Assembly: GCA_024137785.1 (NCBI GenBank)
Contig: JAHRHZ010000066.1
Location: 2,663,880 to 2,727,879, forward strand
Origin: Ginglymostoma cirratum
Lineage: Eukaryota
DNA: 64,000 nucleotides
Direction: 5' to 3'
Made by a program: the position numbers and the translations under genes. The notes beneath the pieces were generated by a model. That model had not been told where the DNA came from. It saw nothing but the letters and a program-made list of their open reading frames with translations, and searched no databases. This document shows, in pieces, positions 5,781 through 63,112 of this stretch (position 1 is its first letter; each line of letters starts with the position of its first letter).

Positions 5781-6638
5781 TTTCTTTTACCGCTACCATT
5801 ATTTTCACTGTTCTAGGTACCAAGTCTGCCGTCTAATAACAGCCTCCATCCATTATTCTCCTTCTTTCATTCACATACACCTTATCCAGAAAGAAAAGTA
5901 TTGGGCTTCTGTTCAGCAATAGTGTGCTGCATGTGGGAAACTCATTGAGGTCTAGGATCAAGCATATATCCCTCCACCTACTGAACATGTTGTATCAACA
6001 CGTTTGTAAGTAAACTGCAATCATTGCACATGATGGACTTCAATGTGATGACATAATATTTATCCGTGATTTGTTTAAGGCATTTCAGAGCAATGATGTT
6101 GGGAGGAGCAGTAGTCTACAAGAACGTTGTTCAATAAAAGACAGAAGGTTCAATTAGACAGACAGCACCAGCGTACATATGCGCTGAATGAAAAATCTAG
6201 ACACAGTCATAAATGCACACAGTGAGTTACACTAAAGCAACAACATTTACTTTGACCAACAACCTGTCTTCAAACCCACACTTTAAAACTAAAAATTTTC
6301 TTCATTTTTGGGGAGTAATGACATCTTAATACTATCTTTTATTTGACAGCATTACAGGGTAGCCTTTCTGTCTGACAGAACTGGGCCTGTAAGTGTGAAA
6401 CATACACTTTTGATCTGTGAAAAATGAAGAAGTCCTTTTGAAAGATTCCTCCCAATGGAATCTGGTCCTTTAGGCTGTCTGAAACAACATCCTACAAAAC
6501 GTATGCAAAAACACCAATCATACATAAATGAATTACGTTTAGACTTTTCTTTTTTGATACAAAATCAAACTTTCAGCCATTTAGTAAGGTCGTACCTGAC
6601 ATTCCATAGAAGCTTTGGCAGAGTGGATGCTATACTTA

Positions 6639-6762
6639 CATAACAACAAAAACAGTTGCTGGAAAAGCTCAGCAGGTCTGGCAGCATCTGTGAAGGAGAA
6701 AACAGAGTTAATGTTTCAGGTCCAGTGACCCTTCCTCAGAACTATACAGAACTATAGCTTTC
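6639..6762 (-). mobile_element. Penelope-like terminal mini-element with hammerhead motif
   Basis: Homologous to copies at 37.4, 47.4, 54.3 and 57.3 kb. Flanked by 9-bp direct repeat CTATACTTA (6630-6638, 6763-6771). Confidence 0.7.
6706..6743 (-). ncRNA. Minimal type-I hammerhead ribozyme motif (probably impaired)
   Basis: RNA reads AGUU-CUGAGGA-A-GGGUC-ACUG-GACCU-GAAA-CAUU-AACU. Both core boxes, helix I and helix II are present; helix III has C.A where CG has decayed. Confidence 0.55.
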
Positions 6763-6929
6763 CTATACTTAGATCTTCTGTGAGACGTGTTACTTGGTGA
6801 AGCTAATGCCTTCGGCATATTTCTTCATTTTATCCTGAGCACCCAGCAATGAGTAGGAATCCAGTTGTTTGCCAATTGATGGATTTTTTGGGGGGTAATT
6901 CTGCAGACATCACAGTGTTTGTCCTAAGT

Positions 6930-8139: not shown

Positions 8140-8672
8140 TGGGTTTGCTACAGCCATGGATGTTATTGCAGAGAACAGAGCTCCTGTTCACAGGAGATCG
8201 GATGACTCCTCCAGTAGGTCCCCAGCATTACAGATACTAGACACAATCTAGGACAAAGCAGCCCACTTGATTGGCACTGCTTCCACAAGCATCTGCTCCA
8301 AACAGTATGTACCATCTACAAGTTGCACTCTAGAAATTCACCAAAGATCCTCGAATAGCACTTTCCAAACCCATGACCACTTCCATCTAGAATGGCAAGG
8401 GTAGCGGATATGTGGGAACACCACCCCCTGCAAGTTCCCCTCCAAGCCACTCACCATCCTGACTTGGAAATATATTGCTGTTCCTTCACTGTTGCTCTGT
8501 CCAAATCCCAGAATTCCCTCCCTAATGGCATTGTGGGTCAACCCACAGCAAGTGGACTGTGGCAGTTCAAGAAGGCAGCTCACCACCACCTTCTCAACAG
8601 CACCTAGGGATGGGCAAGAAATATTGGCCAGGCAGTGATGCCCACATCTCACAAAATTAATAAAAATAAAAC
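8140..8672 (+). mobile_element. 3' end of a CR1/L2-group LINE (same family as 50530-52160)
   Basis: LDTI*DKAAHLIG-type ORF2 end. 3' block TTCAAGAAGGCAGCTCACCACCACCTTCTCAA...AGGGATGGGCAA and A-rich tail. Confidence 0.8.
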
Positions 8673-14479: not shown

Positions 14480-14885
14480 CTATCCCGTTTTCATCTGATT
14501 GCTGGTTGCCTTTGAGAAGGTGGTAGTGAGCTGCCAACTTGAATTGAAGCTGTCCATTCGTTTTCAGGTGCACCCACAATGTTTGGAGAAGGCAGGAACT
14601 GCAGATGCTGGAGTCAGAGATAACAGTGTGGAGCTGGAGGAACACAGCAGGTCAGGCAGCATCAGAGGAGCAGATAAGTCGATGGATCGGGTTCACACCC
14701 TTCATCAGCTCTGGTCATCAAGACTCTGACGCTGCCTGACCTGCTGTGTTCCTCCAAACTGTATTGGCACCCACAATGTTGTCAGGGGAGGGAGTTTCAG
14801 GATTTTGACCTAATGATGCTGAAGGAACGGTGATATATTTCCATGTCAGGATGGTGCATGTCTTGCAGAGGATCTTCCACCATAT
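14480..14885 (-). mobile_element. 3' fragment of the CR1/L2-group LINE, interrupted by a palindromic mini-element
   Basis: TTGAGAAGGTGGTAGTGAGCTGCC is the reverse complement of the block at about 8570-8600. Confidence 0.75.
14584..14766. mobile_element. Palindromic Penelope-like mini-element with 14-bp target-site duplication
   Basis: Perfect GCACCCACAATGTT at 14570-14583 and 14767-14780. Internal inverted repeat GGAGGAACACAGCAGGTCAGGCAGCATCAGAG / CTCTGACGCTGCCTGACCTGCTGTGTTCCTCC. CTGATGA box on the minus strand at 14702-14708. Confidence 0.8.
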
Positions 14886-16649: not shown

Positions 16650-16978
16650 AAAGCTCTGTCACAGGAGTAGTTCAGGCAGAGACTTTATTTAAGGGACTAG
16701 AAGATAGATGTTTGTAGGAAATGAGGATTCTGAGTTGAAGGAGAGGAAGCAGGGCAGTGGCATTAGTTTCCAATTGCATTAGCAAAAAGCCAGCGCACAC
16801 AGAGGGGTGGACTCTTGTGGCATAGAGTTAATGTCCCTATCTCTATACAAGAAGGTCTGGGTTCAAGTTCCACCTGCTCCAGAACTGTGTCACAATATAT
16901 CCAAACAGGTTAGATTAAACATATCAACACACAATAGGACTGCATAGTCTCCTTCTGCTCTTATGAGTTTCTATTCTC
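16650..16978 (+). mobile_element. Old CR1 3' end with a short tRNA-derived SINE nested at about 16809-16922
   Basis: CR1-like LSQE*VQAE.F remnant and tail. Insert has B-box GGGTTCAAGTTCC and matches elements at 36.3 and 63.0 kb. Confidence 0.55.
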
Positions 16979-18809: not shown

Positions 18810-20040
18810 TTATCGTGCTTCAATGTCTTTGTGTGTGTGAGAAGGTGGCCTGTCCCGTGTCTCTGTGTTAGTCAAGGGAGTAGTCCTTCTTGGAGAACCA
18901 GCACGTGCTCCGCCTGTCGGTATGAGGGGGGGAGGGGCACTCAGCGCTGCTGTGGGAGGAGTCTTATTAAGGATGCCATTTTGATGTGCTGCTGAGGGGC
19001 TCACTCTGGGATAGTGCATGCTGGGAAGACCAGGTGTCAAGAGGCTTGGATGAGGCATGTGACCATCCAGGGTTGCTGCGTGAATGGGATGCAGGCGGGC
19101 ATGCTCATAGTCATCTCTAAGCATGTTCAATCTTTCACGCTCTTCTAAGTGGCTCATTCTCTCGTGTTCACGCCTAGGGTCCATTGCTAATGGATGATCA
19201 CGGCTGTAGTCATGGGGCTCCCTGTCCCTGTACGAACGTTCTGTCTCATAAAACCTCGGTGCTGACAGTCGTTGCAAGGGATCACTTCTTAACAAGAAAT
19301 CTCTGGCTAGAGGATCTCTCCGATGAATGTCCAACCCCCTATAGGGATCTCTCAAAGGATCCCTCATTGGATCCCAGTGGAAAGGGGGATAGGGAAAGCG
19401 CTCACTTCCTGGTATTGGACTGATCCCCATAAAAGGAGCTACCATCCGTGTCCTGTCCAATGCATTAATGCTATTCATGGGATGCACCCCACTCATGGCC
19501 ATAGCCATAGGCATAGAGGTCATCGAGGGGCTAGGATGGACATTGGGCAACGAGGTGGGTTGAGAATGCTCAGAGGACCTTTGAGTCTGAATCACGTCAG
19601 AAATAATATCATTGTCTTCTTTCCGTTCCTCCTTCACTTTAACCTCGTTGGCCTTTTTCTGGTGGTCATATGAAGACTCACTTTTCCTATCAACCTCTCG
19701 GGTGGCAATGCTGCTGGATCTCGTGTTGTCTGTGCTCGGTAGCCTGATGTAGGGTGAATTAACTCGATTCATATGCTTGCTGGAATCTTCCACAATCCTG
19801 CTTTCTAATCCCAGGCTTTCCTTCTCAAGAGCGTGATTTTCCTTAACTTTGTGCTCATCAACAGATGAGTCCTTCCAAATATCTGTGAGATCCCGTTCCC
19901 GTGGCTTTTCTTTATCTCGCAGTTCGCTATTTACATGATTTCTGTTGTGCTCATTGGAACTGCGATTGTGTCCCAAAGAATTTACTTGATTTACAGAAGG
20001 TGATGATGCATGAGTGGAGTGTCGCTTCTCAATACTATCC
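18810..20040 (-). CDS. AUTS2: AUTS2 terminal coding exon (exon 19 equivalent), (R)DSIEKRH...[12 protein letters not shown]
   Basis: CAG acceptor at 20041-20043, phase 2; open to TAA at 18810-18812. Contains the 388-aa [34 protein letters not shown] and [15 protein letters not shown] motifs and the KDIEAR terminus match AUTS2. Confidence 0.96.
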
Positions 20041-23000
20041 CTGTGGATACATACAAAAATATAGAAACAAGATTTAGTTCCAAAATCTTATTTTTTTCCA
20101 CCTCCAGTCCTTGCCTTAAAATCTCATTTGCAACAGCCTAAAGATTTAAGAACATTTTTCAAAACGAAGCCCTAATTAATAATTTTAATATCCTACCTCA
20201 GCAATCATGTCAACGTTATCAAGGTAAACTACAAAGGTGGGGGAGTGGAGGTTGTGGTCCTTGTGAAGGACTGCACAGGGCTATCTGGATCATGTGAGAA
20301 CCAATGAAGTCTCTTTTGCATTCTAGTTTCATAGGAAATGTAGCTCTATTATAAAATAGCTATTTTGAACGAGTATCCAATAGTGAGGGCAATCCACTTA
20401 TGAAAAGTTAAGGAACAGGTTGGTGTAATACGTATTTTGCACGCACGTTAAAATTCGTAGACTTTGAGGCACACAAAATTGAAAAGACAGAAGATGCTTT
20501 TCAATAATATTTGTTTAGCCATAACAAAATTCTTTATCTTTCATTGTATTTCAATGTTGCAAATTATTTGTGACTGAGCTGAATGAATGGGGAAGGACAT
20601 TCTTTCCTGTATCTCAATATCTTAAACACTCAAAGGGGGATAGGGAATCTAGAATCTTTAAATCTGGTTAAATAGGGAATATCTGTGTAATGTCTAACAT
20701 TTGAATCCACCAATCCCACATATTGTGCGTCAGTGATTTTTGTTGGTACATGGTGCTAGTTAGGATACAAAACCTACTTGGGATCATCTTGATATGTTTA
20801 TCACGATTTTTTTGTTCGGATGAATAAGTCATTAATCCTTATTGAGTCAAGAAATCCTTTTTTACAAGGAGGTTTGAATTTGTGTGTTCCCAATTAACTA
20901 AAGATGGTTTGAAAGTTTCCTTAAAAGGTGGCAGTATGCAATAATTCTCACCTTCTGTTAAGTATATTTTTATTGGCTTCCAATCTTTGAACCCGATAGA
21001 TTTAACCAAACAGCTGATTGGAATCAAAAAGGTTTCCCACTTTTCCGTGCAATGACACAATTAATTTCAGCCTAATATAGGGCAATAGTTCTCAGTATAG
21101 TGCAATGGAGTATCCCATAAAAGTTTAAGTGTGTAATGTCGTAGAATGAAGTGAATACATTCATGTGATGTGAGACCCTGGCATAGCAAAAAGCAAGCAT
21201 GCTTTTAAAGCAATGTTCTCTAGAAACTGCACAGTGTTTTATAGCCAGCAATGTTTGAGAATTATTGGAACCACTCCAGCCCAACAAACCAATAATATAC
21301 TCAGTACTTGATTTGGTTAAAACAGAGCATAAACACTAGAGATAAATTTTGATCTCTTGTGTTGACTAATTTGTTTGTAGCGACTATATTAAGGGGTCAG
21401 AACTGTTGCTGGTAATGTTTAAAGTAAAGGATAGGTACCTAAGAAAGAATTAAATGCATCTGCAGTATGTGCAATTTTTAATTCCACTAGGGAGTGCTAC
21501 ATTGCCTGAATGATGAAAACTGCTTGCTTCTCAAGACCCACCACTATGAACTTTAAGTGGTGTCAGATTTCCAATTTTGTGCAAAATAACCCAATTTGGC
21601 AAAACTCTGACTTGGTACTAACTACTTTTCCACTCTGGATAACACAAAACTTCAGGATTGCATTTGTTTCCTGTAGAGGTCCTCACAGAGGTCAGAGAAC
21701 ATGTTACTCGTGATTTAGAATGTCCGATCATGATAAAAATCATCACAAAAAATCAAGTAGCCACGAAATCCCAGTGAATGTTTAGACAATTTTGTTCTTT
21801 TCTAACACAGTGAAGCATTTTAAGACTGTATTTTTCAAGTTATACTTTACTTAAAAAGGTCAGAAGTTTCATGGGAATTTTATGAGCTTTAGATGAACCT
21901 TGTGTGAGAATTAGCCTATCAAAACTTTTAAAAATCACATGTTGAGAGCTCATTAGGTCCAAGGTATCTCCCTGATGTTACATTTTCGTAAAATAATGCT
22001 ACTGCTGCTGGGTAGTTTGGTCCTCCGATTCACAGCTCTAAAATGTTGTTGGACATGGATATGTACCCACTTGCCCATTAAGTGAGGAGGCTCAGCAGGA
22101 AATAGAGAGAAAAGGAAAGCTGAAATGCAGAGCTATTCTGAGGGTCTTATACAACTCCAGCAGCAGCGTGATGGAAACTACAGCACTGCAAGCAGCCTAT
22201 CCTGCAAGCCAGTGATAATATTTGGTGCAGGGAAGGAGGCTCTGGACAATAAAAGGGAAGAAAGTTAAAATATCTTGCTCACTAAGTTAGGAAAAACAGC
22301 CTTGTGTTATTCAAAGCTACATCAGCCACTATAGTGGTAAAATAATACAGTATTCATTTAAAGTAAGAGTAACAAGCCAACATGACAAGATACTGAACAT
22401 ATTTAAGTACCACAAGGTGCAACAAGCAAATGATAGACCATGACAAGCAGGAATTTGCTGAAGCATGCTATAGTTCGCCAGCTCATAGATTACACCTCAC
22501 CAACTGCATATTGTTTTAATCAGTGACCATATTGAAAATGATGAGGAAGTCACAGCCTTAATATCCCCAAGTTGTTGACTTTGATCGAACTTGGAATTTT
22601 CTTTAGTTAAGTTAGTTAACCCTTTCCAGCCAAAGATAAACCATGCCTCCTAAAAAATCTCTCATCCCTCTCTCATTATCTTTCTCATGTTCCTTTATTT
22701 TACTGCCATCACAATGGTCAATTATCATTTGGTATTTTCTCTATCGGAGTCATTTTAACGTAACCCACCAATCAGGGAGCTGACATGATCGGTTTCTCGA
22801 ACCTTTTTTAAACTTTCTGTTGGAGTCAATGAAAACTAAAATCAAGCAGTGTGTAGAATAGGTGATTGTTTTAATTGTAGTGGTGGGTTGGGTTAAAGTT
22901 ACCTTTCTTACTCTGGTGAGTTCCAAGTCCAATGCCCTACCAGCTCCTCCACTCCTCTGCATCCTGACTTTAAGGAAATATGATCTTCTCTCTGCTCGTC

Positions 23001-25450: not shown

Positions 25451-28400
25451 ACTGTAGAATTTTTGGTTCCACTCAACTTCTATGGAATGGAAAGCCAAAC
25501 AAATGGCTAAAATGCTTTTCTTAAAGAGACTGATTGCATGCAACACAGAGCTAAATAGATGGGGGTCCATGGTTCCTGTCTCTCTCTCTAAGGTCAGAGG
25601 GGTGTGGAGACTCTTCTCAAGGGAAGGACAGCCACCCTTAATAACTAACTGGAGACACCTCTCTGTTACAGCTAATCAGAACCTGGCAATATTGGAAGTA
25701 CCAGTGGTGCCAGCAGTGGCAGTAGCTACTCCCAGTACAGAAATCAGGCAATGGGTGGGGGAAAGGTGCTGTCAGTTAAGTGACTGTGATGGGCAGATGG
25801 GCTCCTCAGTGCCACCCTGCCGCTGGTATAATTATAGTGGGAAGCAGCCAGGATGTATTTACCAAAGTCCCCTGCTGGCAAGAGAAGTTGAATCCTGTCC
25901 ATGGGCTCAAATGATTAACATATGGCTTGACGATGGAAAAAAATACTCACATCTACCATGAGTAAGAAGAGAACAAGAAAATGATAATGTTTTATTTTTA
26001 GCTGTAGTCAACTACAGAATGTGGCTGCTTTCAAGGACTGTGTCCCTCTGTGGGCCAAGCAGCACTAAGTACAGGGAATGATTAGTTGGATGCAATCTAT
26101 ATCTGATTAAGCAGAGATTAACCTATGGTGATAACATTTTACCTATATGATTATAAAGGCACTATATAGACTAACACCAAGTATTTAGATCATTTTATTT
26201 AACAAAGCTGTTGATCAGAGTTCTACCTCCCTCAGCTTCATCAGTTTTGCATGAGTGTGCTCTGAAATGTGGTCTCACTGATCTGCATGGATCTTCTAGC
26301 CACAACAGTAAAATATTGAGGGATTGCATGACAGCTGCCCTGATATACTGAGATATTTAACTCGAGAAATGGTTGAGGCTGGAATGGGAGAAAATTCCAA
26401 AGTGCTTTAAAGAATTCAAAGTTAACGACATTGGCCAGTCCAGACTTATACAACTGTACTCACTCCACATTGGGAATGGTTCACTTCAATAAATTCAATG
26501 TCATTTCTACAAAGACCAACAAATGGGAGGACACTTATCTTGGTAAATTGTACCTCTCCAACAGGGATTCTTACACAAGACTTAAAATACTTCTGGATAA
26601 AACCTTTACCTATAAAATGTTCCTCCCATTGCATCAGCATTACATAATTGGCTTGCTAAAAATTATAAGTTAAGAAATTGACATACAACATTAAGGAATA
26701 CAAATATTGGAATTCGTCAATCGTTAACAGAATAATATTGAGACATTTTTCCAAACCATTCCAAAAATAAACTCAAACTTTTTTTATTTGCCAATACCAT
26801 TAGCAGTGTTGTCAGAGGTGTACTCTAATTGCATATTGAACTTGAAGGTGTGCCTTTCAGGATTCACGTCATGTCAAAATGAATTCCGGTGTGCAACAGT
26901 ACAGCATCAGCACAACCTTATGGGCATTGCAATGGTAGTCTCTCAGTGATCATGAACACCTAAGATCAATAATGGGTTCTATTTAGTTTTGTCAATATTT
27001 GTTTCAAAAGGATATAAAGAATTAGCACCAGTTTAAAACAGCTACATTTTAAACACCAGGCAAGCATATTGTTTCTGATTCACATTGCTGGAGTTTGGAC
27101 TACTCTTGGCTAACTAAAATTTCTCTAGTTAATAGGAAGGTAAAAGTACCACGTTAATTCCCTTTTCACTGGCAGCCGCTAATCATCTCTTTGAAGAACC
27201 CATTAGTGAATGAGCAATAATGTATCACTCTATACAGAAAATGGCTTATTTGTAATGTTACAGTTATAGCTATATCTGTAGTTAGTTCTGTACAAAATAA
27301 AACAAAAATGGAATGATATGATATTTTTAGCTTGTAGACTTCCTTAATTTCCTACAAACAGGTTCGAGGAATATCAGTTTCTAAATTTAATGTGAATATC
27401 GATGCTGTATTTAGTTGCCTGGTTTGGGTAGTTGATTATTGATAAATTTAATGTTAAAATGATTTTAGAAGTCTTGGATTTCAGAAGAGGCTCCACCATT
27501 AAAAATGAAAAGAAACATTCTAATTAGCTGAAGTTTTGAATCAGAAAATTACTCAGGCGATTATAATTATTTGTAAAGAAGTACTTTAATAAGATCCTTA
27601 AAAAGGATGTTGGAAAAATTGCCATGTTTTTAAAATTAACATTGAAAAATTCCTACTTAAATCTAATACTGCTTTCATTGAAACGGCAGCTTCTTGTTTC
27701 AGAGCAAAGACTATTGGTGTTCAGTAAGGAATGGAATAGTGTTGTCTGTCTTGTGTTAACATTATCAGATTTTCCTCAAGAAGAAATGAGGTAGCATTCC
27801 CTTTATGCTGACCATGCAAGGTATCCTGGCAATAAACCCAACCACACACCCCAGATTTAATTCCCTCAAATAATTTTTGTTTCTGGTTACTTATTTATGA
27901 TGGCTCTTTGAAGGGAAATCAAGTATCTTTTAATTCAGTGGTGTCAAGTCAATGGGCAACGTTTGAGAACACATGACTTCAATGGCTCGTGCCACACCAT
28001 GTCTGGGTGCAGCACATCTTCTCCTCCCTCCTCCACCAGTGAGACTCAGATCACAGCTGTGCTATTTATAAAGGGACCACTGAATCAAGAAGGAGAACGA
28101 TGTTTCAGGGATAGTCAACCCAGGTTATTTTTACATGTGTCCTGGAGGCTCTTCACTGAGTTGTGCTTCTTGGAACAGACTATCTAATGGAGACTGGACA
28201 CATGGAAGAAATGTGAAAGGAGGCCAGGACAAAACTGAGTGAATTGTAGCTTGTGAATTTCACATTTCTCTGAGTTTAAAGACTGATGTAGCTATCAGAA
28301 GAATGTTAAATTTGCAAATATTAAATATGTGAATCCTTAACTGAAGTACAGGTGCCCAATACAGCACGTGAATCAGCCAACTGGATTTGAAGGAAGTTTG

Positions 28401-28501
28401 CCGTGACATTATATGACAATGAATGACCCACACCTTCGAGTTCATGTTTCTTTTTATATATAGAATAGGACTGGATGAATTTTTTGCTTAACCCCTCGTA
28501 C

Positions 28502-28724
28502 CTTTCTTTTTCATCTTTACTAACAGAAGAGTCTCGTTTTTCTACATCTCTATCTCTGTCATGAGCTGCTACAGAGGAACTGCGCTCTGGCTCCCCTGGC
28601 TTCAGCCAAGGGGGTGGGGTTGGAAACGAAGGTGGCGTTCTGTGGAGTCGATTCCAAGGTTCGTGAGGGTTGCTAAAGCTCTGCATACTGGGGCCATCTT
28701 TGTGGCTGAACATTGTGTTGGATG
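28502..28724 (-). CDS. AUTS2: AUTS2 coding exon (exon 18 equivalent), (T)[12 protein letters not shown]...[22 protein letters not shown]...KDEKE(R)
   Basis: 223 nt, phase 1/2. CAG acceptor at 28725-28727; GTACGA donor. Overlaps ORF 28321..28713. Confidence 0.95.
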
Positions 28725-29184
28725 CTGAAATGGTTGAGAAAACAAAAATACAAAAAAAAACAATGTTTAAAAAGTCTGGCAGTCGGCTTGTCAGTACTTA
28801 CCAAGCAACGCACTCTGAGTTTAAAATGTATACATACTATTGGCAGCTGGAAACAAGAAGGGAAAAATTACAGCAATATACAAGCCGGCAGCAAACATTG
28901 CCATTCAAGCCCTCAAATCATCAGTAACAAAACTAAACTCGTTTGAAAGGATCACATCTAATTTGGTAATGGACAGGAAAAGATTAATTCAAACACAAAG
29001 TTCAAAGTTCAGCTTGCCCGTCTATCCTTACCCACTCTCTATATGCAGGAGTCATGATGGAAATTAGTTTTGTGCAACATTCCACTTGCAGGCTCTTTTC
29101 AGCTTCAGTCACTAGAAGCTGATAAACAGGATGAACACAGGCTGCTTTTCTCTTTCCTAGGTCATTTGGACCCTTGAGATTACA

Positions 29185-36284: not shown

Positions 36285-36388
36285 AAACATCCAGAGATGT
36301 TCTTACACACCTCTGTAGCAGATGGGAATTGAACCCAGGTCTCCTAATTCAGAGATAGGGATGCTCCCACTGTGCCACATGAACCCTA
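36285..36388 (-). mobile_element. Short tRNA-derived SINE
   Basis: Minus strand has A-box-like GTGGCACAGTGG and B-box GGGTTCAATTCCC; similar to 16809-16922 and 63010-63112. Confidence 0.65.
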
Positions 36389-37430: not shown

Positions 37431-37566
37431 TTTCTGAAGAAGGGTGACTGGACTGGAAACATTAACTCTGCTTTCTCTCCACAGAGGCCACCAGACCTGC
37501 TGAGTTTTCCCAGGAATTTCTGTTTTGTTTCTGACTTGCAGCGTCTGCATTTCTTTGTTTTTTTTG
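37431..37566 (+). mobile_element. Penelope-like terminal mini-element with hammerhead motif
   Basis: CTGAAGA-A-GGGTG-ACTG-GACTG-GAAA-CATT-AACT starting at 37434, followed by the family body CCAGACCTGCTGAGTTTTCC and a T-rich end. Confidence 0.7.
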
Positions 37567-42637: not shown

Positions 42638-42825
42638 TTAAATGTTGAATTATCATCATGCAGTTGTAACCAACTGGGCCAAATTTGGACCTGTTTCCAT
42701 GAATGTACGCTTAAGTGGAGTAGACTGTACTGTACATGCTAACTTGTCGGCAGTTGTTTCAGTCTGCGAACTGTTTTCCCAATTCCCAATTCTTTCCCAA
42801 ACACCAGCCAGCCCTAAGTGATTAC

Positions 42826-42903
42826 CTAAGTGAGAAGCTGGACTCAAGAAGCTGTTGTGATGAGGTGGAGGTCCGAAAGGGTTTCCACTGGGATGTGTGG
42901 TAC
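42826..42903 (-). CDS. AUTS2: AUTS2 coding exon (exon 16 equivalent), (G)[25 protein letters not shown](E)
   Basis: 78 nt, phase 1/1. CAG acceptor at 42904-42906; GTAATC donor. Lies within ORF 42656..42952. Confidence 0.93.
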
Positions 42904-43347
42904 CTGCAAAGAGACAGAGAAGACAGTTTTCTTCAAAGAAGCATTCACACAAAACTGTTCACCATGACCTGTGTCCATCCAGCATTTGGTTCGCCAAGCT
43001 ATTTCATGACGTAATACAATTGTTTTTGCATCTTAAAAGGTATCAACAGGATTCAGCATAATATTAATGAAGTCTGGACTGGTGTATGCTTTCATTTTGA
43101 AGATTTCTAATCCCAATGACTGATGCAGGTTAGTGGGGAATGCCACCTTCAAAAATGAAATATGTGATCTGTCAAAAATAAGACAATGTTTAAAAGTTTC
43201 TCAAAGTACAGTCAGTAACAAATTTAACCTGAGATTCGGACTGAGTAAGTGAAGCACAAATAAATTGGAGTGGGGTGGGGCAATCAAAAGAGGCAAAAAT
43301 AGAAATGCAGAGAAACAGAGACAAATTCGAAAGGGTAGAGATAGGGG

Positions 43348-44743: not shown

Positions 44744-44849
44744 CTGTAAGGTGCAAAATCAAAAACAGCCTGGTCATTTTATGTCTCACCACCTCACGTT
44801 CAGTGCTCCTTTTGTAAAAGTCCGAGAAAATGGGCAACAGCCTGAATCG

Positions 44850-44920
44850 TGATCTGTTTCTCTCCCTACAGATACTGCCAAACCTGCTGAGAATTTCTAA
44901 TGCTTTCCCGTTTTATTTAC
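44850..44920 (+). mobile_element. Fragment of the Penelope-like mini-element family (no ribozyme core)
   Basis: CTGTTTCTCTCCCTACAGATACTGCCAAACCTGCTGAGAATTTC matches the family body. Confidence 0.6.
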
Positions 44921-47049: not shown

Positions 47050-47766
47050 TTCTCATGAGGTGCTGCCTCTCTCTCCCCTTTAAACCTGAAGTCATCACTC
47101 CTCACTGCAGCCATTATCTTCAAGTCCATCAATTCAGACTCTGTTTACTAACTAACCACCCTCTTTCTCCTTAGCAACTGTCTGAGACTAAAACAGACCG
47201 TTTGCAAACTTGGTATCACATTTGACTCAGAGATAGGTTTCCACCCACGTATATGCACCATCATTATGACCACTGATATCTATCACTGTCAAATTGCCCA
47301 AGTTAGCCCCTGTTTTAGCTGATCTGCTGATTCATTCCTTTGTTACTTCAACTCTTGGCTATTCTAGTCTAGTCCTGAAAAGCCTCCCCCATTCCACCGT
47401 CCACCAACTTGAGGTCATCCAAATCTTTGCTCTTCTGAAGAAGGGTCACTGGACCTGAACCATTGATCCTGCTTTCTTTCCACGGATGCTGCCAGACCTT
47501 AGTTTTTCCAGCTATTCCCACTGTTCTATCCTTGGCGGTCATGCATTCAGCTGTTCGGACTCTAAACTCTGGAAATCCCTCCTTAATGTTCCTACCTCTC
47601 TCTTACTTTCAGCTACTCCTTAAACCTACCCCTTTGACCAAGCTTTTTGTCATTTGTGCTAATATCACCTTAAGTGGCTTCGTGTCGATTTTGTTTTATT
47701 GATCTCCAACGAAGCACTTCTGACATGTTACTCCAGTAAGGAATCATGTAAATGTTAACATTGTTG
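47050..47766 (+). mobile_element. L2-clade LINE 3' fragment with a hammerhead-bearing mini-element nested at about 47432-47530
   Basis: NLGITFD and LGYSSLVL-type L2 ORF2 remnants; tail GTAAATGTTAACATTGTTG. Insert reads CTGAAGA-A-GGGTC-ACTG-GACCT-GAAC-CATT from 47435. Confidence 0.65.
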
Positions 47767-50067: not shown

Positions 50068-50360
50068 ACGACAGCAGGCTGCATGGTGGCTCCGTAGTTA
50101 GCACTGCTCTGAGGAGTTTGCACATTCTCCCCAAGTCTGCGTGGGTTTCCTCCCACAGTCGAAATATGTGCAGATTATGTGAATTGGCCACGCTAAATTG
50201 CTCATAGTGTTCAGGGATATGCAAGCTAGGTGGTTTAGCCACGGGAAATGCAGAACCATGGTGATACGGTGGTTCTGGGTGGGATGCTCTTTGGAGAAGT
50301 GGTATGGACTTGATGGACTGACTGGCCTGCTTCCACACTGTAGGGATTCTATGATGATTC
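50068..50360 (+). mobile_element. HE1-type V-SINE (internally deleted)
   Basis: tRNA head TGGTGGCTCCGTAGTTAGCACTGC, V domain GGAGTTTGCACATTCTCCCC..GTCTGCGTGGGTTTCCTCC, and CR1-like tail GGGATTCTATGATGATT. Confidence 0.88.
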
Positions 50361-50529: not shown

Positions 50530-52160
50530 CAGCCCTGCCACATCTATTTATATATACAATGCTGGATGTTAAAACCACTGCTTCCATAAATATCCCCATC
50601 CCCAAGAGTGGGGAGTCCAAAACATCAGTGTAGAAGATAAGACTGAAGAAGTTGCATCCATCTTCAACCAGAGTACTGAGTGGATGATCCTTCTCAGCCC
50701 CAGCATCACACATTCCAGCCTTCAGTCAATTCAGTTCACTCCATGCGACATCAAGAAAGGGCCCAAGTATGTGGGCCTGACAAGAAATGGAGAACTTATG
50801 CCTCCAGCACAGATAGGACACTGCACTTACCCAATAATGTGGAAAATCGCCCACGAATATTCTGTCCACAAAAAGCAAGACAAATCCAAAACGGCCAATA
50901 TCTGTCCTATCAGTCGATTCTTGAGCATCAATAAAGTGATGGAAGGGGTCATCAACAGTGTATCAACGGGTATTGCTTAGCAATAACCTGCTCAGAGACA
51001 CCCAGTTTAGGGTCCTTCAGGGCAACTCCACTCCTGACCTCATTACAGCCTTGGTCCAAATACAGACACAAGAGCTGAATTTCAGGGGTGAGGTGAAAAT
51101 GACTGAACTTGACATCAAGACCACATTTGACCAAGGGTGGTGTCAAGGAACCCCAGCAAAACTAGACTCAATGGGAATAGGGGAAAAAATTTCCATTGGT
51201 TAGAGTCCTACCTAGCACAAAGGATGATGTTGGAGGTCAATCATTGCAGCTCCAGGACATCACTGCAGGAATTCCTCAGGGTAGTGTCCTTGGTCCAACC
51301 ATCTTCAGCTACTTCATCAATGACTTTCCCTCCATCATAAAGTCAGAAGGGGGAAGTAATCACTAATGATTTCTCAATGTTCAGCACCATTTGTCACTCC
51401 TTAGATAGTGGAGTAGCCAGTGTCCTTATGCAACAATGCTTGGTCTTGGGCTGATAAATGGCAGGTAACATTCATGCTACAGTTATCACCAACAAGACAG
51501 AATCTCAGCATCTCTCGTGACATTCAACCATCAATGTTTTATCATTACCGCATCTTCCATCAGCAACATCCTGATGGTTACCATTGACCAGAAATTAAGC
51601 TGGGCGAACCAGAAGTGGGTACAAGAGCTGGCCAGAGGCTCGGGATTCTGCAGCAAGTTACTCATCTGCTATCTCTCCAACACCTGCTATTGATTACGAG
51701 GCACAAGTCTGAAGTGTGATGGAATACTCTCTCCACTGCCTTGGATGGGTGCAGCTTTAACAACATTCAAGATAGCTTGACACCATCCAGGGCAAAGCAG
51801 CTATTGATAAGCACTCCATTCACCACCTTCAACGTTCACTCCCTTGTCATTGAAACACAGTGACACATGAAGGATCTTTCCAACACTTTGCAAACCCATG
51901 ATCTCTACCATCTGGACGGACAGGTGCAGCAGATACGTGGGAAAAAACCAGCATTGCAAGTTCCTCTCCAAGCTGCACACTACCCTGACTTGGAACTATG
52001 TCACCGTTCCTTCACTGTTGGTGGGCCAAATTCCTAATAGCATTGTGTCTATCCCTACACTCTCGGGTTTGCAGTGGTTCAAGGCGGTTGCTCACTACAA
52101 TCTTCTCAAGGGCAGTAAATGTGGCACCTGCCAGCGACTCTCATACTCCAAAAATTATTT
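50530..52160 (+). mobile_element. CR1/L2-group LINE ORF2 fragment with 3' end (decayed)
   Basis: ORF track shows WKIA...VHKKQDKS..AN.CPIS..SINKVMEGVIN and ELDIKTTFDQGW. GIPQGSVLGP lies at about 51268-51297. 3' end is homologous to 8140-8672. Confidence 0.88.
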
Positions 52161-52724: not shown

Positions 52725-53092
52725 GAATGACAGAATTTCTACAGTGTGGAAGCAGGTCATTTAGCCCATCGAGTACACACCAATCCTCTGAACAGCATCC
52801 CACCCAGACCCACACCCCACCCCCAACCCTATCCCTGTAACCCTGCATTTCCCATGGCTAATCAGTCTAACCTGCACATCCCTGGGCACTATGGGCAAGT
52901 TAGCATGGCCAATTCACCTAACCTAGACATCTCTGGACCGTGGAAGGAAACCTGAGCACCCGGGAGGAAACCTGCGCAGGCACGGGGAGAATGTCTGTGT
53001 GGAGTTTGCACAATTATCTGAGGCTGGAATTGAACCGGGGTCTCTGTTGCTGTCAGGCAGCAGTGCTGACCACTGAGCCACTGTGCCGCCCC
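52725..53092 (-). mobile_element. HE1-type V-SINE, near full length
   Basis: Minus strand starts GGGGCGGCACAGTGGCTCAGTGGTCAGCACTGCTGCC; B-box GGTTCAATTCC, V domain and CR1-like tail are present. Confidence 0.9.
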
Positions 53093-53461: not shown

Positions 53462-54254
53462 CTGCAGAAGAAGATAGAAAATCCTGTTAATGTGGAAAGT
53501 TAAACCATTTCTGACAGTCTGTTGAGTGGGTAGAATGTTTAATTTAAGCCAGCAACTGTAAGAGAACATAGGGGCCATTATCTGAGCAGCTGGTGATTCG
53601 CCTTACACATTTTTGCCCTTTTGTTAACAAGTGTAGAGCTGTTAAGTAGCTACAAGAAACTATCATTCTGCTCTTATTTGTCAATATGAACTATATTACA
53701 TCAATCAAACCTCTTTGTGTCAATCACTGGTCGCTTCCTTGTATTGCTCTCCACTCAAATCCCCTTCCATAAGCTTTGCTTATTCCTGGATCTGCCACTG
53801 GGGAAAACAAATCTCTTTCAATTCATTTACGGTAGGGCGTTCAAAATCCCACCTGACTTCTTTTGGCCCTGCAATCATTACTATATATCTACAGCTACTG
53901 ATTTGATTAACCAAACCCTTTCTAACACCTTTGAAGCACAGGTCTGATTAAAAAAGAAATTACTGTCCCTCATGCTGACCAGTCCCCTTCTGCATCCTCC
54001 ACCTTCCATTCCAACAACTGAGAGCTACTCATGGATTCCTGTACCAGTTAAAATTAAGCATTCCATCAGCTTCCTCTCCCACTTCTCCCCCTTCTCCAAA
54101 CCTCCTTTCTGCCACTGTACATGTCCTGAACTCATATCTCTCTTTAGTTTCCATCTTATCTTGCTCCATTCATTCTCTTTCTATTCTGTTCTCGGGCCTC
54201 CATCCTACACCCTCAAACCCATTCACGATAAATGGATGATTCACAAAATTCCCT

Positions 54255-54477
54255 AAAATAAAACAAAGATGTGCAGAAGCTGGAGATCTGAAATGAACAA
54301 AACCAGAAATAGCTGGAGAAATGCAGCAGATCTGACAGCATCTGTGGAGAGAAAACAGAGTTAACATTTTCAGGCCAGTGACCATGAAGAAATGTCATAT
54401 GGAACTCAAAACATGAGCTCTGTTTCTCTGTCTACAGATGCTGTGAGTTTCTACAGCAATTTATGTTTCTTTTTGTG
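54255..54477. mobile_element. Palindromic Penelope-like mini-element with 12-bp target-site duplication
   Basis: ACAAAATTCCCT at 54243-54254 and 54478-54489. Two inverted arms of the family meet at about 54383. Confidence 0.78.
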
Positions 54478-54499
54478 ACAAAATTCCCTTCCTAGTACA

Positions 54500-54858: not shown

Positions 54859-57270
54859 CTCAAGTTATTTCTATATTAGCAAGCAAACTATTGCCTCAAT
54901 GAGGTTTGGCAGATAACAAATGAAGCCAAGCGATTTTAACACAGAAAAGTGTCATACCCTAATTCAGGGACCAAGCAGTAAAATTACCTAGTGCACAACA
55001 AAAAGCTCTGTCTATAATGCACTTGCGAACTACCTCAGTTCCAATCTCCTCTAACTGCTTGCATCCCTAAAATATTTCATATACAAGCTACTCTGCAGTT
55101 TCCCTGGCTGGGATTCTATCTGCACAATATAAAATTAATTAGACAATTAACATTTCTGAGCAGCTCTCTAAAACGAAATACTGATTTTACCATTCACGCT
55201 GCAGCAACATGCAGTTCAACTTTTTCTGGCTTCAAGTCCTTTCGCTTCATCACACTACTGCTCTGAGGGATCACTGTCAATAGGAACTTGTTTAGAACTT
55301 CCCAGATGTATTTCACATTGGACTTTAACAGTCTGCGCTATTTAAACCCAGGTACCATCATCAGAAAGCCTCCTTGATATCACACTGACAAACTTTAGTC
55401 CATTCCAGCCTCCATTCAGTTCTGCAGATGTCACTTTCCATAGCCTTTATAACGAGGTCAAAAGAGATTCCAAGTCTCACTGTATGTGGGAAGTTCAATA
55501 CCGTGGCTTTAGAAGGGAACACAAGGGAATCCTTCTTTGTATTCAATATTATTCATTAAATATATCTGACCTTACTGGGTTTGATGGTAGAATGTGACTG
55601 GGTATGATAAATTGCTGGAATTCAATTATTGTTCACCAGAATTTACTTGAAAGAAGGTGATAAGATCCTGCTTAGTTTGCTGGTTTGCACCTGTTACATA
55701 AATCTGCACACATTTTAAAAATCCACTTTCCAGAAGCAACTTTGGAAAGAAGAGCAAATATGAAGGAAAATCCCATGCACTGTTTTGACTGGATAGTTCA
55801 AAAGTAAATTGCTGACCGTATGTTTTACTAACTTACTAAGAGTGGTAAAAGTTTTCCCAGCATTGGCAGTGACAGAGAAGATTAAGTCAGGAACTCCTCA
55901 ACCGGCCAGACAGAGTGCCCACCTCTCCATGATTACCAGCAGCATTGTTCCATGCTTAGCCAAACTGACTGTGGGCAATGCTGGGCTTATTCTTTTTCCT
56001 TCAGAGTCAAGACACTTTGTCATCAAAACATACTTGTATGTGCAACCCCCAAGTGCCTTGGCAAAACCAGCGGAATTGCCAGATGCAGGTAGGAGCATCT
56101 TTCTGTGATAACATAAATCAGTTTCATCACATGTTCGTTTTATAAATAAGGCCTACAAGATGAGCTGCCAAAAAAGAAATGCATTCTGTTTCTCTGTAGA
56201 TAGGTCACATTGAAACAAATCATCATCTTAACTGGATGTGACTGTTACAATTTGGGCCTTTCCACAATGCACTTTACTCAGTAAAAAGGTCATTTTCATA
56301 AGCAGACCTGTGTGTCCTAGGAAGTGAGATCTGTAATCTGTTTCCTGATGTGAATGGAACATGACACAGGGCGAACAATTACTCTTCTACCATGACATGA
56401 TGCAGTGGAAATAATGAGAGCAATCCACTACATTCCGTCTGTTTCAACAAATGGATAATACTGGAGTCTGAATGAAACCAATAATCATATATATTTACAA
56501 GCAGTTTGATAACATAACATATACACAGAGCAAGAAGCCAGTAATTCACTACTTGATTCATTACCTAAACTGTTTCTAATCATCAAATTTAGAAATCCAT
56601 TCAAAAAAACTTCTGAATTTAGTCTATAATGGAACATGTGTAACATTCACTCCCTGTTTCACTGTGGAAACAGGCAGAGAAAACAATGAAATAGTTGATG
56701 CAGACTTGATGGGCTGAATGGACTCCTTCTATGTTGTGCTATGATTCAATGAAGCATTAGGGGGTAGTCCATCCAAGTTAATTTCTTTTCCTTTAGGATT
56801 TCAAAGCCAGATTCCTTCTGATTATCAAACAGATTCCTCACAAGCATCTTACAATTACAAATGCTAGAAGTATTAATTTTAAGACAGCAATTGCTTTCAT
56901 TTTCATGTCTTTGAGGCAAACACACACAAATAATTATTTCAAAGACATGAGGTAAATTTCGATATAACTAATATGGGAATAAGAGCAGTAATTCCATTCA
57001 GAGGATCTGCCTGAAGATTATCTGTATCTCTAAACAGGTCTGCATGTTGGCTTTCCCTCCCAGTGCCGACTCAAGGATTCTGTCTCAAGTGCAAGAAATT
57101 GAGATTAATTTTAAACTTGCTTTATTTCACTGAAGCTTGCATTAAAAATGACACACTCCATGTGTGAGACATAAGGAGCTCTATGTCCATCAGAGCGGCA
57201 TCAACTTAACAGGAATAGTACAGTGCTCCTCCTTCCCAAAACAAGAAAGGGATTCACCAAAAATCTTTTT

Positions 57271-57581
57271 GTAAACAAAAACAGAAATTGCTGCAGAAAC
57301 TCAGCAGGTCTGGCAGTATCTGTGGAGAGAAAACAGAGTTAGCATTTTGAGTTGAGTGACTCTTTGTCAACTCTTGAAGTGAGTACTCAACTGAACCCAC
57401 AGCTCTCTTTGCTCACTGACAGAATGAGCCCCTTGAGAAGTTATGAAGAAGGGTCACTGGACACGACACTTTTAACTGTTTTCTCTCCACAAATACTGCC
57501 AGACCGATTGAGTTTTGCCAGCAATTTCTGTTTTCGACTGTTTCAGATCTCCAGTGTCCACAGTTCTTTCTTTTATTTTAG
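57271..57581. mobile_element. Palindromic Penelope-like mini-element
   Basis: Inverted arms at about 57275-57372 and 57437-57535. Near-identical flanks TCACCAAAAATCTTTT (about 57254) and TCACAAAAATCTTTT (about 57582). Confidence 0.78.
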
Positions 57582-57772
57582 TCACAAAAATCTTTTCCTG
57601 TTTGATGATTTGAACAACGATTTTCATTCATGGATTTGATCTGCAGTCATCGCAACCAGTTGAACGAAATCCACCTCCTTTAGATATTCTTCAGGGGGTC
57701 AAGATGACCTTAATTCAGATCCTAATGGATAAAAGCTCCCAACAAAGACCATTGACCATGAGTGACATTTCA

Positions 57773-63009: not shown

Positions 63010-63112
63010 GGGACTCATGGGACTGTGATAGTGTCCTTACCTCTGACGAGAAAGTCTGGGTTCCAGTCCCACCTCCTGCAGAGGTGTGTAATGTCTGAAC
63101 AGGTTGATTAAT
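63010..63112 (+). mobile_element. Short tRNA-derived SINE
   Basis: GTGTCCTTACCTCTG...GGGTTCCAGTCCCACCT...AACAGGTTGATTA; homologous to 16809-16922 and 36285-36388. Confidence 0.65.

Follow-up and report, generated by a model that had tools for sequence, protein, structure and literature searches.

Hammerhead-bearing stubs dispersed in a shark genome are terminal-repeat pieces of a Penelope-like element, probably copied from uncut RNA

Short repeats carrying a minimal hammerhead ribozyme motif are scattered through a 64,000-nucleotide stretch of the genome of the shark Ginglymostoma cirratum (contig JAHRHZ010000066.1, positions 2,663,880 to 2,727,879), hereafter the window. What these repeats are, and what determined their ends, is the question raised by this locus. 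A first-pass annotation, made from the letters alone, listed six such sites and offered two options: pieces of Penelope elements lacking reverse transcriptase (RT), or a separate non-autonomous family bearing the ribozyme.

The motif was examined at 6706-6743. These coordinates proved right; the strand, which the annotation had omitted, is minus, and the inserted unit measures 100-140 bp, not 38 bp. The type-I hammerhead mapping proposed for this copy was borne out. Base 6743 is the first base of helix I and is numbered +1 throughout. From it the minus strand presents the 5' strand of a 4-bp helix I (6743-6740), a CUGAGGA box (6739-6733), the extra A (6732), a 5-bp helix II (6731-6727 with 6722-6718) whose outer, first pair is G.U, the GAAA box (6717-6714), CAUU (6713-6710) and the 3' strand of helix I (6709-6706). 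The predicted cut falls directly after CAUU, between 6710 and 6709, i.e. after +34. Both catalytic boxes (CUGANGA and GAAA) are unbroken, and CAUU stands where the undecayed motif has CGUU; in family A, to which this copy belongs, the triplet before the predicted cut is GUU. As the annotation states, three aligned copies have CATT (6.7, 37.4 and 47.4 kb) and one has TGTT (54.3 kb). The proposed ancestor of both, a CGTT palindrome lost by CpG decay, was recovered: the undecayed 38-mer occurs exactly 32 times genome-wide, against 0 for the reversed control. The statement that every copy is damaged holds within the window and fails genome-wide, where copies with an intact core exist.

Structure prediction and covariance models were of little help with so small a fold. 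The minimum-energy structure of 6706-6743 consists of helices I and II, yet shuffled sequences fold as well (z -0.17); folding energy is uninformative for the hammerhead (z -0.17 and -0.85), and helix I is predicted to disappear once 101 bases are folded. The Rfam check proposed by the annotation gave no hammerhead match: the window was scanned at a limit of E<=10, and 20 loci that included an intact copy were judged at gathering score. We attribute these misses to the minimal size of the fold and not to absence of the hammerhead. The palindromic helix III, which would form dimers, is present in the family and lost in the 6706-6743 copy: its predicted self-duplex has -3.5 kcal/mol in intact family copies and +2.8 in this copy. 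The dimers predicted to be lowest in energy have a non-catalytic form.

With nhmmer, each of the six listed sites proved to belong to the family (E 7e-17 to 2e-3); a further arm, the seventh and more decayed, lies at 44.8 kb. The window thus holds six hammerhead-bearing insertions and one decayed arm, as stubs of 100-140 bp; three of the insertions are head-to-head pairs, and four have target-site duplications (TSDs). The 6.7-kb copy is a solo short-form stub of family A (6643-6743, minus) that runs from +1 to about +101 with 95% identity to the family consensus. Its probable 9-bp TSD has its upstream copy at 6763-6771, and the exact 9-mer recurs downstream at 6630-6638 (both minus); about 19 filler bases after the upstream copy repeat the first bases of the stub. 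This TSD is weaker than the others because it is only a 9-mer and has filler between. The 14.6-kb insertion (14594-14756) is a head-to-head pair with a 14-bp TSD (14570-14583 and 14767-14780), consisting of a long arm with a decayed hammerhead (14594-14708, minus) and a short arm (14724-14756, plus). The copy at 14.7 kb had been called a divergent variant, and it does belong to a divergent B/E-type family. Its helix II has 4 bp (14690-14705, minus; also at locus L171), closed by what we take to be a GNRA-type tetraloop.

The remaining copies lie further along the window. A solo long-form stub at 37432-37565 (plus) extends from +3 to +139 with a broken helix II, and no TSD was seen around it by eye. 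The heavily decayed arm at 44832-44917 (plus), absent from the first-pass list, has lost most of its hammerhead, and the stub at 47433-47520 (plus) starts at +3 and has a mutated GAAA box and an eroded 3' end. The pair at 54253-54475 joins a long arm starting from +14 (54253-54383, minus) to a short decayed arm (54385-54475, plus), with a 12-bp TSD identified by eye (54243-54254 and 54478-54489). At 57274-57578, a short arm bearing a helix II A-U variant (57274-57369, minus) and a long arm (57439-57578, plus) are separated by a spacer of about 70 bp and flanked by a 12-bp TSD (57258-57269 and 57585-57596).

Searches of the window with blastn and tblastn found no Penelope open reading frame (ORF) or upstream untranslated region (UTR), and the copies are likely decayed, inert passengers; nothing points to a host function for them. 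AUTS2-family exons lie on the minus strand at 28324-28797 and 42659-42958 (Pfam PF15336, E 3e-32 and 1e-7). The 37.4-kb copy sits between these exons and the copies at 44.8-57.6 kb lie upstream on the AUTS2 strand, so all of these are likely intronic. A frame of 425 codons at 18813-20087 (minus), without a Pfam match, may be the last coding exon of the same gene. The window also contains further dispersed repeat families (8359-8672, 14502-14879 and 51884-52035; 50122-50355 with 52727-52994; 16813-16901, 36294-36382 and 63056-63091), likely SINEs and LINE ends, one of them weakly tRNA-like (Rfam 21.9 bits, 36314-36384).

The family was then counted in the genome (4.36 Gb searched). With the loop and position 7 left free, the hammerhead core had 7,310 exact matches and its control 0. 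A 34-mer downstream of the hammerhead had 18,407 exact matches, and a rough extrapolation puts the arms of two families at roughly 5x10^5 to 10^6 genome-wide (560 kb fetched, 262 unreadable; the 56 stretches include 8 next to the window). At pair 2 of helix II, G-C was present in 7,310 copies, A.C in 292, G.U in 289 and A-U in 42, where independent decay would give 11.5 A-U copies (P 4e-12). Half of the A-U copies (21/42) also have U at position 7, compared with 3 of the first 100 G-C copies listed; this shared second marker indicates a subfamily that fixed the compensated pair. Pairing was also scored in 13 hand-picked rows, which represent five subfamilies and two copies of the window. Paired cells made up 89%, and change on both sides was seen at 3 of the 8 pairs; the two main scores were matched by 5-8 of 500 shuffles, and slid controls paired at 52% or less. 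Because the rows are related, we regard this result as supportive. A consensus lacking the boxes or helix covariation had been named in the first-pass annotation as what would speak against the ribozyme. The boxes are present in 7,310 copies and compensatory changes were found between subfamilies, so the fold was likely under selection between subfamilies and the ancestral ribozyme was likely selected to fold.

The motif belongs to the terminal repeat (pLTR) of a Penelope-like element of about 3.2 kb, of Neptune/Nematis type. Among 30 loci with a perfect motif, one has RT and GIY-YIG frames that end 250 bp upstream of it. A genome search with the RT/GIY-YIG region returned about 40 scored copies of at least 1.8 kb (1.8-2.1 kb) at 88-91% identity, and in these the roughly 100 bp of the stub also terminate an ORF with the order RT, thumb, CX4CXXC and GIY-YIG. 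The aligned long copies encode about 1000 codons with a DKG motif, RT motifs, the CX4CXXC linker (also seen in locus L031) and GIY-YIG. The endonuclease domain PF01541 scored 22.7 bits against a cut-off of 22.6. The RT fragment itself had no Pfam match; its homologues, at 48-66% identity, bear PF00078. A CX2-5CXXC linker between RT and endonuclease marks the Neptune and Nematis clades in the available text of 10.1101/2021.04.23.441226, and we assign the element to the joint Neptune/Nematis type because of its linker. The nearest named proteins come from whale shark, bamboo shark and stingray (61-66% identity). One stingray protein (P0005), which its annotation calls a divergent isoform of a protein kinase, matches the element RT at 64% over 92% of the query, probably as an exonised or mis-annotated insertion.

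The same sequence also precedes the ORF. In most of 30 loci picked through the ORF 5' end, the hammerhead lies about 170 bp before the ORF start, with variable lengths of 3' UTR upstream of it, which is the partial tandem that forms a pLTR. Partial tandem, inverted 5' copy, tail of 30-40 bp and TSD are all seen in this element. Two ORFs follow +1: an upstream one of 30 codons from +57, and the long one from +174. Therefore, the first option of the annotation stands: the stubs are RT-less Penelope pieces, since their sequence both ends and precedes an ORF of about 1000 codons encoding RT and GIY-YIG. The second, a separate non-autonomous family, was not upheld, as the short variants have long counterparts bearing ORF or UTR and the stubs have no TATA-like box upstream.

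Several features of the leader region were observed in passing. The 30-codon ORF (L073:1392-1485) spans both of the priming sites proposed below, and family B has a similar frame. Family A has two splice-acceptor-like sites, each with a TTAAC-type branch motif, pyrimidine tract and CAG, before the ATGs at +57 and +174 (L073:1370-1505 and window 6688-6712, minus). The first branch motif overlaps the predicted ribozyme cut; family B is without the first site. No canonical splice joint was found among 15 listed of 102 joints in contigs assembled from runs guessed to be RNA, and the depth of these contigs mirrors genomic copy number. Complementary 7-base segments at +56..+62 and +111..+117 bracket the first priming site and are kept in families A and B. 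They are a candidate protein-binding structure (region 37432-37565) and are absent from predicted minimum-energy folds.

The positions at which copies start and end were determined in two overlapping sets. The first comprised 96 copies taken from the head of the 34-mer match list and chosen by the downstream 34-mer alone, with 5 copies with unreadable flanks kept; their 5' ends fell at -2..+5 in 56 copies, at +7..+54 in 28 and at -6 in 1, and 11 extended at least 120 bp upstream. The second comprised 190 readable arms with no selection on the 5' part and unreadable flanks dropped, with 99 ends at -2..+5, 50 at +6..+32, 5 at +33..+37 and 1 at -19..-3. The 3' ends of the 96-copy set formed two clusters, at about +97..+110 and +135..+144, which correspond to the known 30-40 bp tail of Penelope-like elements. 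Family B behaved similarly (72 copies, those with unreadable flanks retained): 23 of the 72 5' ends lay at -2..+5, 12 of these at +2, and 3' ends lay near +99 and +133. The stubs thus begin mostly at the first base of the fold and not at the cut, which makes it likely that the element RNA starts there and was copied uncut. We give a probability of roughly 0.7 to the reading that they are short separate insertions, produced when RT was primed about 100 or 137 bases inside uncut RNA and ran off its 5' end at helix I.

The pLTR was read against the general TATA and initiator consensus and spacing. TATA-like hexamers were found at -29/-31 in family A, at -31 in B, where it is the sole such match in 300 bases, and by eye at about -29 in C, in UTRs that are otherwise dissimilar. 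The sequence around +1 fits YYANWYY, which we take as the initiator pattern, in A, B and D. No TATA box is present in the single D-type copy that has upstream sequence, nor do the stubs themselves have a TATA-like box upstream. In the part of PMC2377424 available to us, the promoter of the D. virilis Penelope is internal and TATA-less.

The pile-up at +1 may also come from stalling or cutting at the edge of a structured RNA. The stubs would then be ordinary 5'-truncated read-through copies, and +1 a point on the 5' edge of the fold where stalling or nuclease cutting is frequent, an explanation that we consider unlikely. It draws on the coincidence of the pile-up with the helix I base in A and B, its spread over about 8 bases, and the lack of a cap-G signal in A, where a cap-derived extra G was near background (9/22 copies at +2, 5/17 at +1). 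The coincidence with the fold edge and the near-background extra G, together with the D-type copy without TATA, the TATA-less D. virilis promoter and the rarity of A-runs, also count against a start at +1. On the other hand, RT moves 3' to 5' along the RNA, so that the entire fold lies behind it by the time it arrives at +1. The TATA-like boxes at -29 to -31 in otherwise dissimilar UTRs, the single end among 190 at -19..-3, and the T-run lengthening and A-run junctions at +1 described below likewise argue against a stall, and we favor run-off at the RNA 5' end.

With a TSD called at 10 or more bases, one mismatch allowed, and solos with unreadable flanks dropped, 18/37 solo copies had flanking repeats compared with 2.2% of 1,332 shuffled pairings. 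Paired arms were head-to-head in 95 cases and tail-to-tail in 6, and a repeat of at least 10 nt surrounded the whole pair in 54/95 head-to-head pairs (2.1% of shuffled pairings). Each unit, solo or pair, is therefore one insertion. A short and a long arm were joined in 60/66 classifiable pairs (P 3e-12), the other 29 of the 95 being not assignable as short or long. A tail on one of the inverted pLTRs has already been described in the available part of PMC3846280.

The 54.3- and 57.3-kb pairs were considered as subfamily mixtures and rejected, as A+B mixing occurs in only 3/95 pairs across loci. Arms differ by 8.5% within a pair and 12.0% between pairs. The low mixing and the likeness of arms within a pair indicate that pairs mostly come from one source. 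The A+B pairs (L022:1107-1305, L022:2355-2573 and L143:1347-1582, two of which may be one duplicated event) hint at occasional mixed templates or insertion into old copies.

Fixed ends, TSDs of their own and the 18,407 exact matches to one 34-mer would equally suit a SINE- or retrozyme-like family that arose from the pLTR and propagated itself from stub to stub, and non-LTR retrozymes do stem from pLTRs and are reported in one cartilaginous fish in the available text of bioRxiv 2026.07.22.740005. Three observations make such a family improbable as the general explanation: no TATA-like box lies upstream in the stubs, their arrangement is solo or head-to-head (95 pairs) with no tandem arrays in the window, and their variants recur in long copies bearing UTR or ORF. 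Some copying from stub to stub may have occurred.

Sequence features at the +1 end look like traces of a physical RNA terminus. In family B, with unreadable flanks dropped, the T-run before the core was 4-9 long in 12/38 stubs, and in the 15 copies extending upstream it was at most 3 (P 0.012). At twelve junctions, internal sequence of the element is fused to +1 or +2; a non-templated A-run of at least 5 was present in 4 of them, one of these having been selected for its A-run, and 5 of 6 checked by eye had a duplication around the whole composite. Genome-wide, A8 precedes the motif 6 times and T8 never. Two of these A8 sites follow ORF fragments; because the others are three solos and one pair, the A-run is no proof of an ORF-specific tail.

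Junctions at the predicted cut were assessed in 102 copies that lack +27..+31 and keep +40..+61. Among 100 listed and scored by eye, starts fell at +32 (22), +33 (10), +34 (1), +35 (12), +36 (3) and +37 (8), the remaining rows starting later or being small deletions; 30 fetched copies gave +32 (8), +33 (2), +34 (1), +35 (5), +36 (1) and +37 (4). The excess at +35 (12 of 100 listed, against 1 at +34 and 3 at +36) leaves room for some cut templates. Mirror joins at a 4-base match supplied by helix I account for five of the 12 rows at +35, and a 6-base palindrome is centred on the predicted cut site. Owing to this microhomology and palindrome, junctions there need no cleavage, and cleaved templates may be a small minority at most. 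Rfam, applied at gathering score to 20 loci, showed neither U6 nor any other RNA joined at the cut site; these loci are a small sample from one family, and 18 of them were picked for ends near the cut.

These counts weigh on the model in which ribozyme cleavage and religation into circles drive copying, so that stubs derive from cut or circular RNA. It was put forward in the available text of PMC4209133 and would account for selection on the fold between subfamilies and for the small +35 excess among the 102 copies. A circle has no +1 end, yet half of the arms stop there and only 5/190 end at +33..+37; with 5/12 of the +35 rows explained by helix I microhomology, the palindrome at the cut, and the 20 loci free of U6 and other Rfam RNAs at gathering score, we judge this model very improbable for the family.

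Membership in the element, the fold and its covariation, the fixed 5' and 3' ends, the TSDs and the joining of short to long arms are observations; internal priming on uncut RNA would connect them as follows. The TATA/initiator promoter of the pLTR would start the RNA at +1, and the GIY-YIG domain would make a staggered cut of about 9-16 bp. Of two adjacent internal sites, each DNA end would use one for priming, and either a solo stub or a short and a long arm head to head would result. RT would sometimes jump from +1 to the 3' end of another RNA, at times A-tailed, and continue copying, and long copies would arise from the repeat of the priming region that a read-through RNA carries at its 3' end. 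The ancestral ribozyme would cleave as a dimer or with protein help, but the insertions are not defined by cleavage. We favor this sequence because of the +1 pile-up, the TATA-like boxes, the TSDs, the short and long pairs, the lengthened T-runs and the +1 junctions, and because in vitro the lizard element PAc, with uncut RNA as substrate, starts copying at two internal sites and elongates both strands.

With somewhat better than even odds, the stubs can be read as fossils, spread across the genome, of the opening step of Penelope-type retrotransposition: a transcript starting at the hammerhead, two fixed priming sites on uncut RNA, and a strong-stop-like cDNA left alone, as a mirror pair, or after a jump to an A-tailed 3' end. 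If so, pseudo-LTRs, the one-sided tail and the inverted 5' copy share one mechanism, and the ribozyme acts at the cap-proximal end of the RNA and not through release of unit-length circles. How pseudo-LTRs, tails and inverted ends form and what the ribozyme does are described as unclear in the available parts of PMC11167929 and 10.1101/2021.04.23.441226. The motif itself was to be expected, since vertebrate Penelope-like elements carry such hammerheads and those in Penelope repeats are already published (PMC4209133, in the part available); its value is as a marker. At least 18,407 young copies are present in the genome, and their ends predict that the RNA starts at +1, that its priming sites are near +100 and +137, that the template is uncut and that RT jumps end to end. 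Should these predictions hold, the cleave-and-circularise model is disfavoured for this family. The openly searchable literature covers the pairing of hammerheads with Penelope elements in general, but no paper on this shark family or on strong-stop Penelope copies was found there; supplements or repeat databases such as Repbase/Dfam may list the family.

Compared with known systems, the shark motif most resembles the minimal hammerheads of metazoan Penelope-like elements (Cervera and de la Pena 2014, PMC4209133). In the available text of that paper these also have a type-I fold in the pLTR with a helix I of 4-5 bp, an extra base between 9 and 10.1, a G10.1-C11.1 pair, palindromic positions 15.2-16.2 without loop 3, and several consensus families whose mostly single, dispersed motifs are ascribed to truncated elements. 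Single motifs did not cleave there and dimers did so weakly. The shark family differs in its helix II of 4-5 bp, against 7-8 bp in the Schistosoma families, and in the GUU triplet before the predicted cut of family A. Copy ends are mapped here and not in the available parts of that paper, whose text and two supplements, as far as available, name no shark.

The element as a whole resembles Neptune/Nematis elements as the available portions of Craig et al. 2021 (10.1101/2021.04.23.441226) and Arkhipova et al. 2013 (PMC3846280) describe them: a single ORF with RT and C-terminal GIY-YIG, the DKG motif and CX2-5CXXC linker, partial-tandem pLTRs with an adjacent inverted truncated copy, a 30-40 bp tail on one end, TSDs of 8-10 bp in the published elements, and a putative TATA/Inr in the pLTR. 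Unlike in those elements, most sampled shark arms are stubs that break off sharply at the hammerhead on their 5' side. In the available part of PMC3846280, head-to-head palindromes of rotifer elements are explained by an antisense template on which self-priming occurs, and solo pLTRs that have no TSD by recombination, whereas the shark data fit two primings on sense RNA. Non-LTR retrozymes (bioRxiv 10.64898/2026.07.22.740005, available text) share with the stubs a non-coding, pLTR-derived unit, a type-I hammerhead and dispersed monomers. They form tandem arrays with a hammerhead in each unit, in contrast to the window copies, which are solos or inverted pairs with TSDs and do not form tandem units that each hold an intact hammerhead.

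The closest mechanistic parallel is PAc, a Poseidon element of Anolis carolinensis (Frangieh et al. 2024, PMC11167929). PAc belongs to another clade, and its ORF starts inside the hammerhead, unlike the shark ORFs at +57 (30 codons) and +174. A transcription start at helix I, proposed here for the shark element, is not placed in PAc in the available text of that paper, which describes its ribozyme as protein-assisted. As in our reading of the shark element, two neighbouring internal RT start sites define the tail in PAc, both strands are cut and extended, uncut RNA is the main substrate, and the hammerhead lies just upstream of the priming region.
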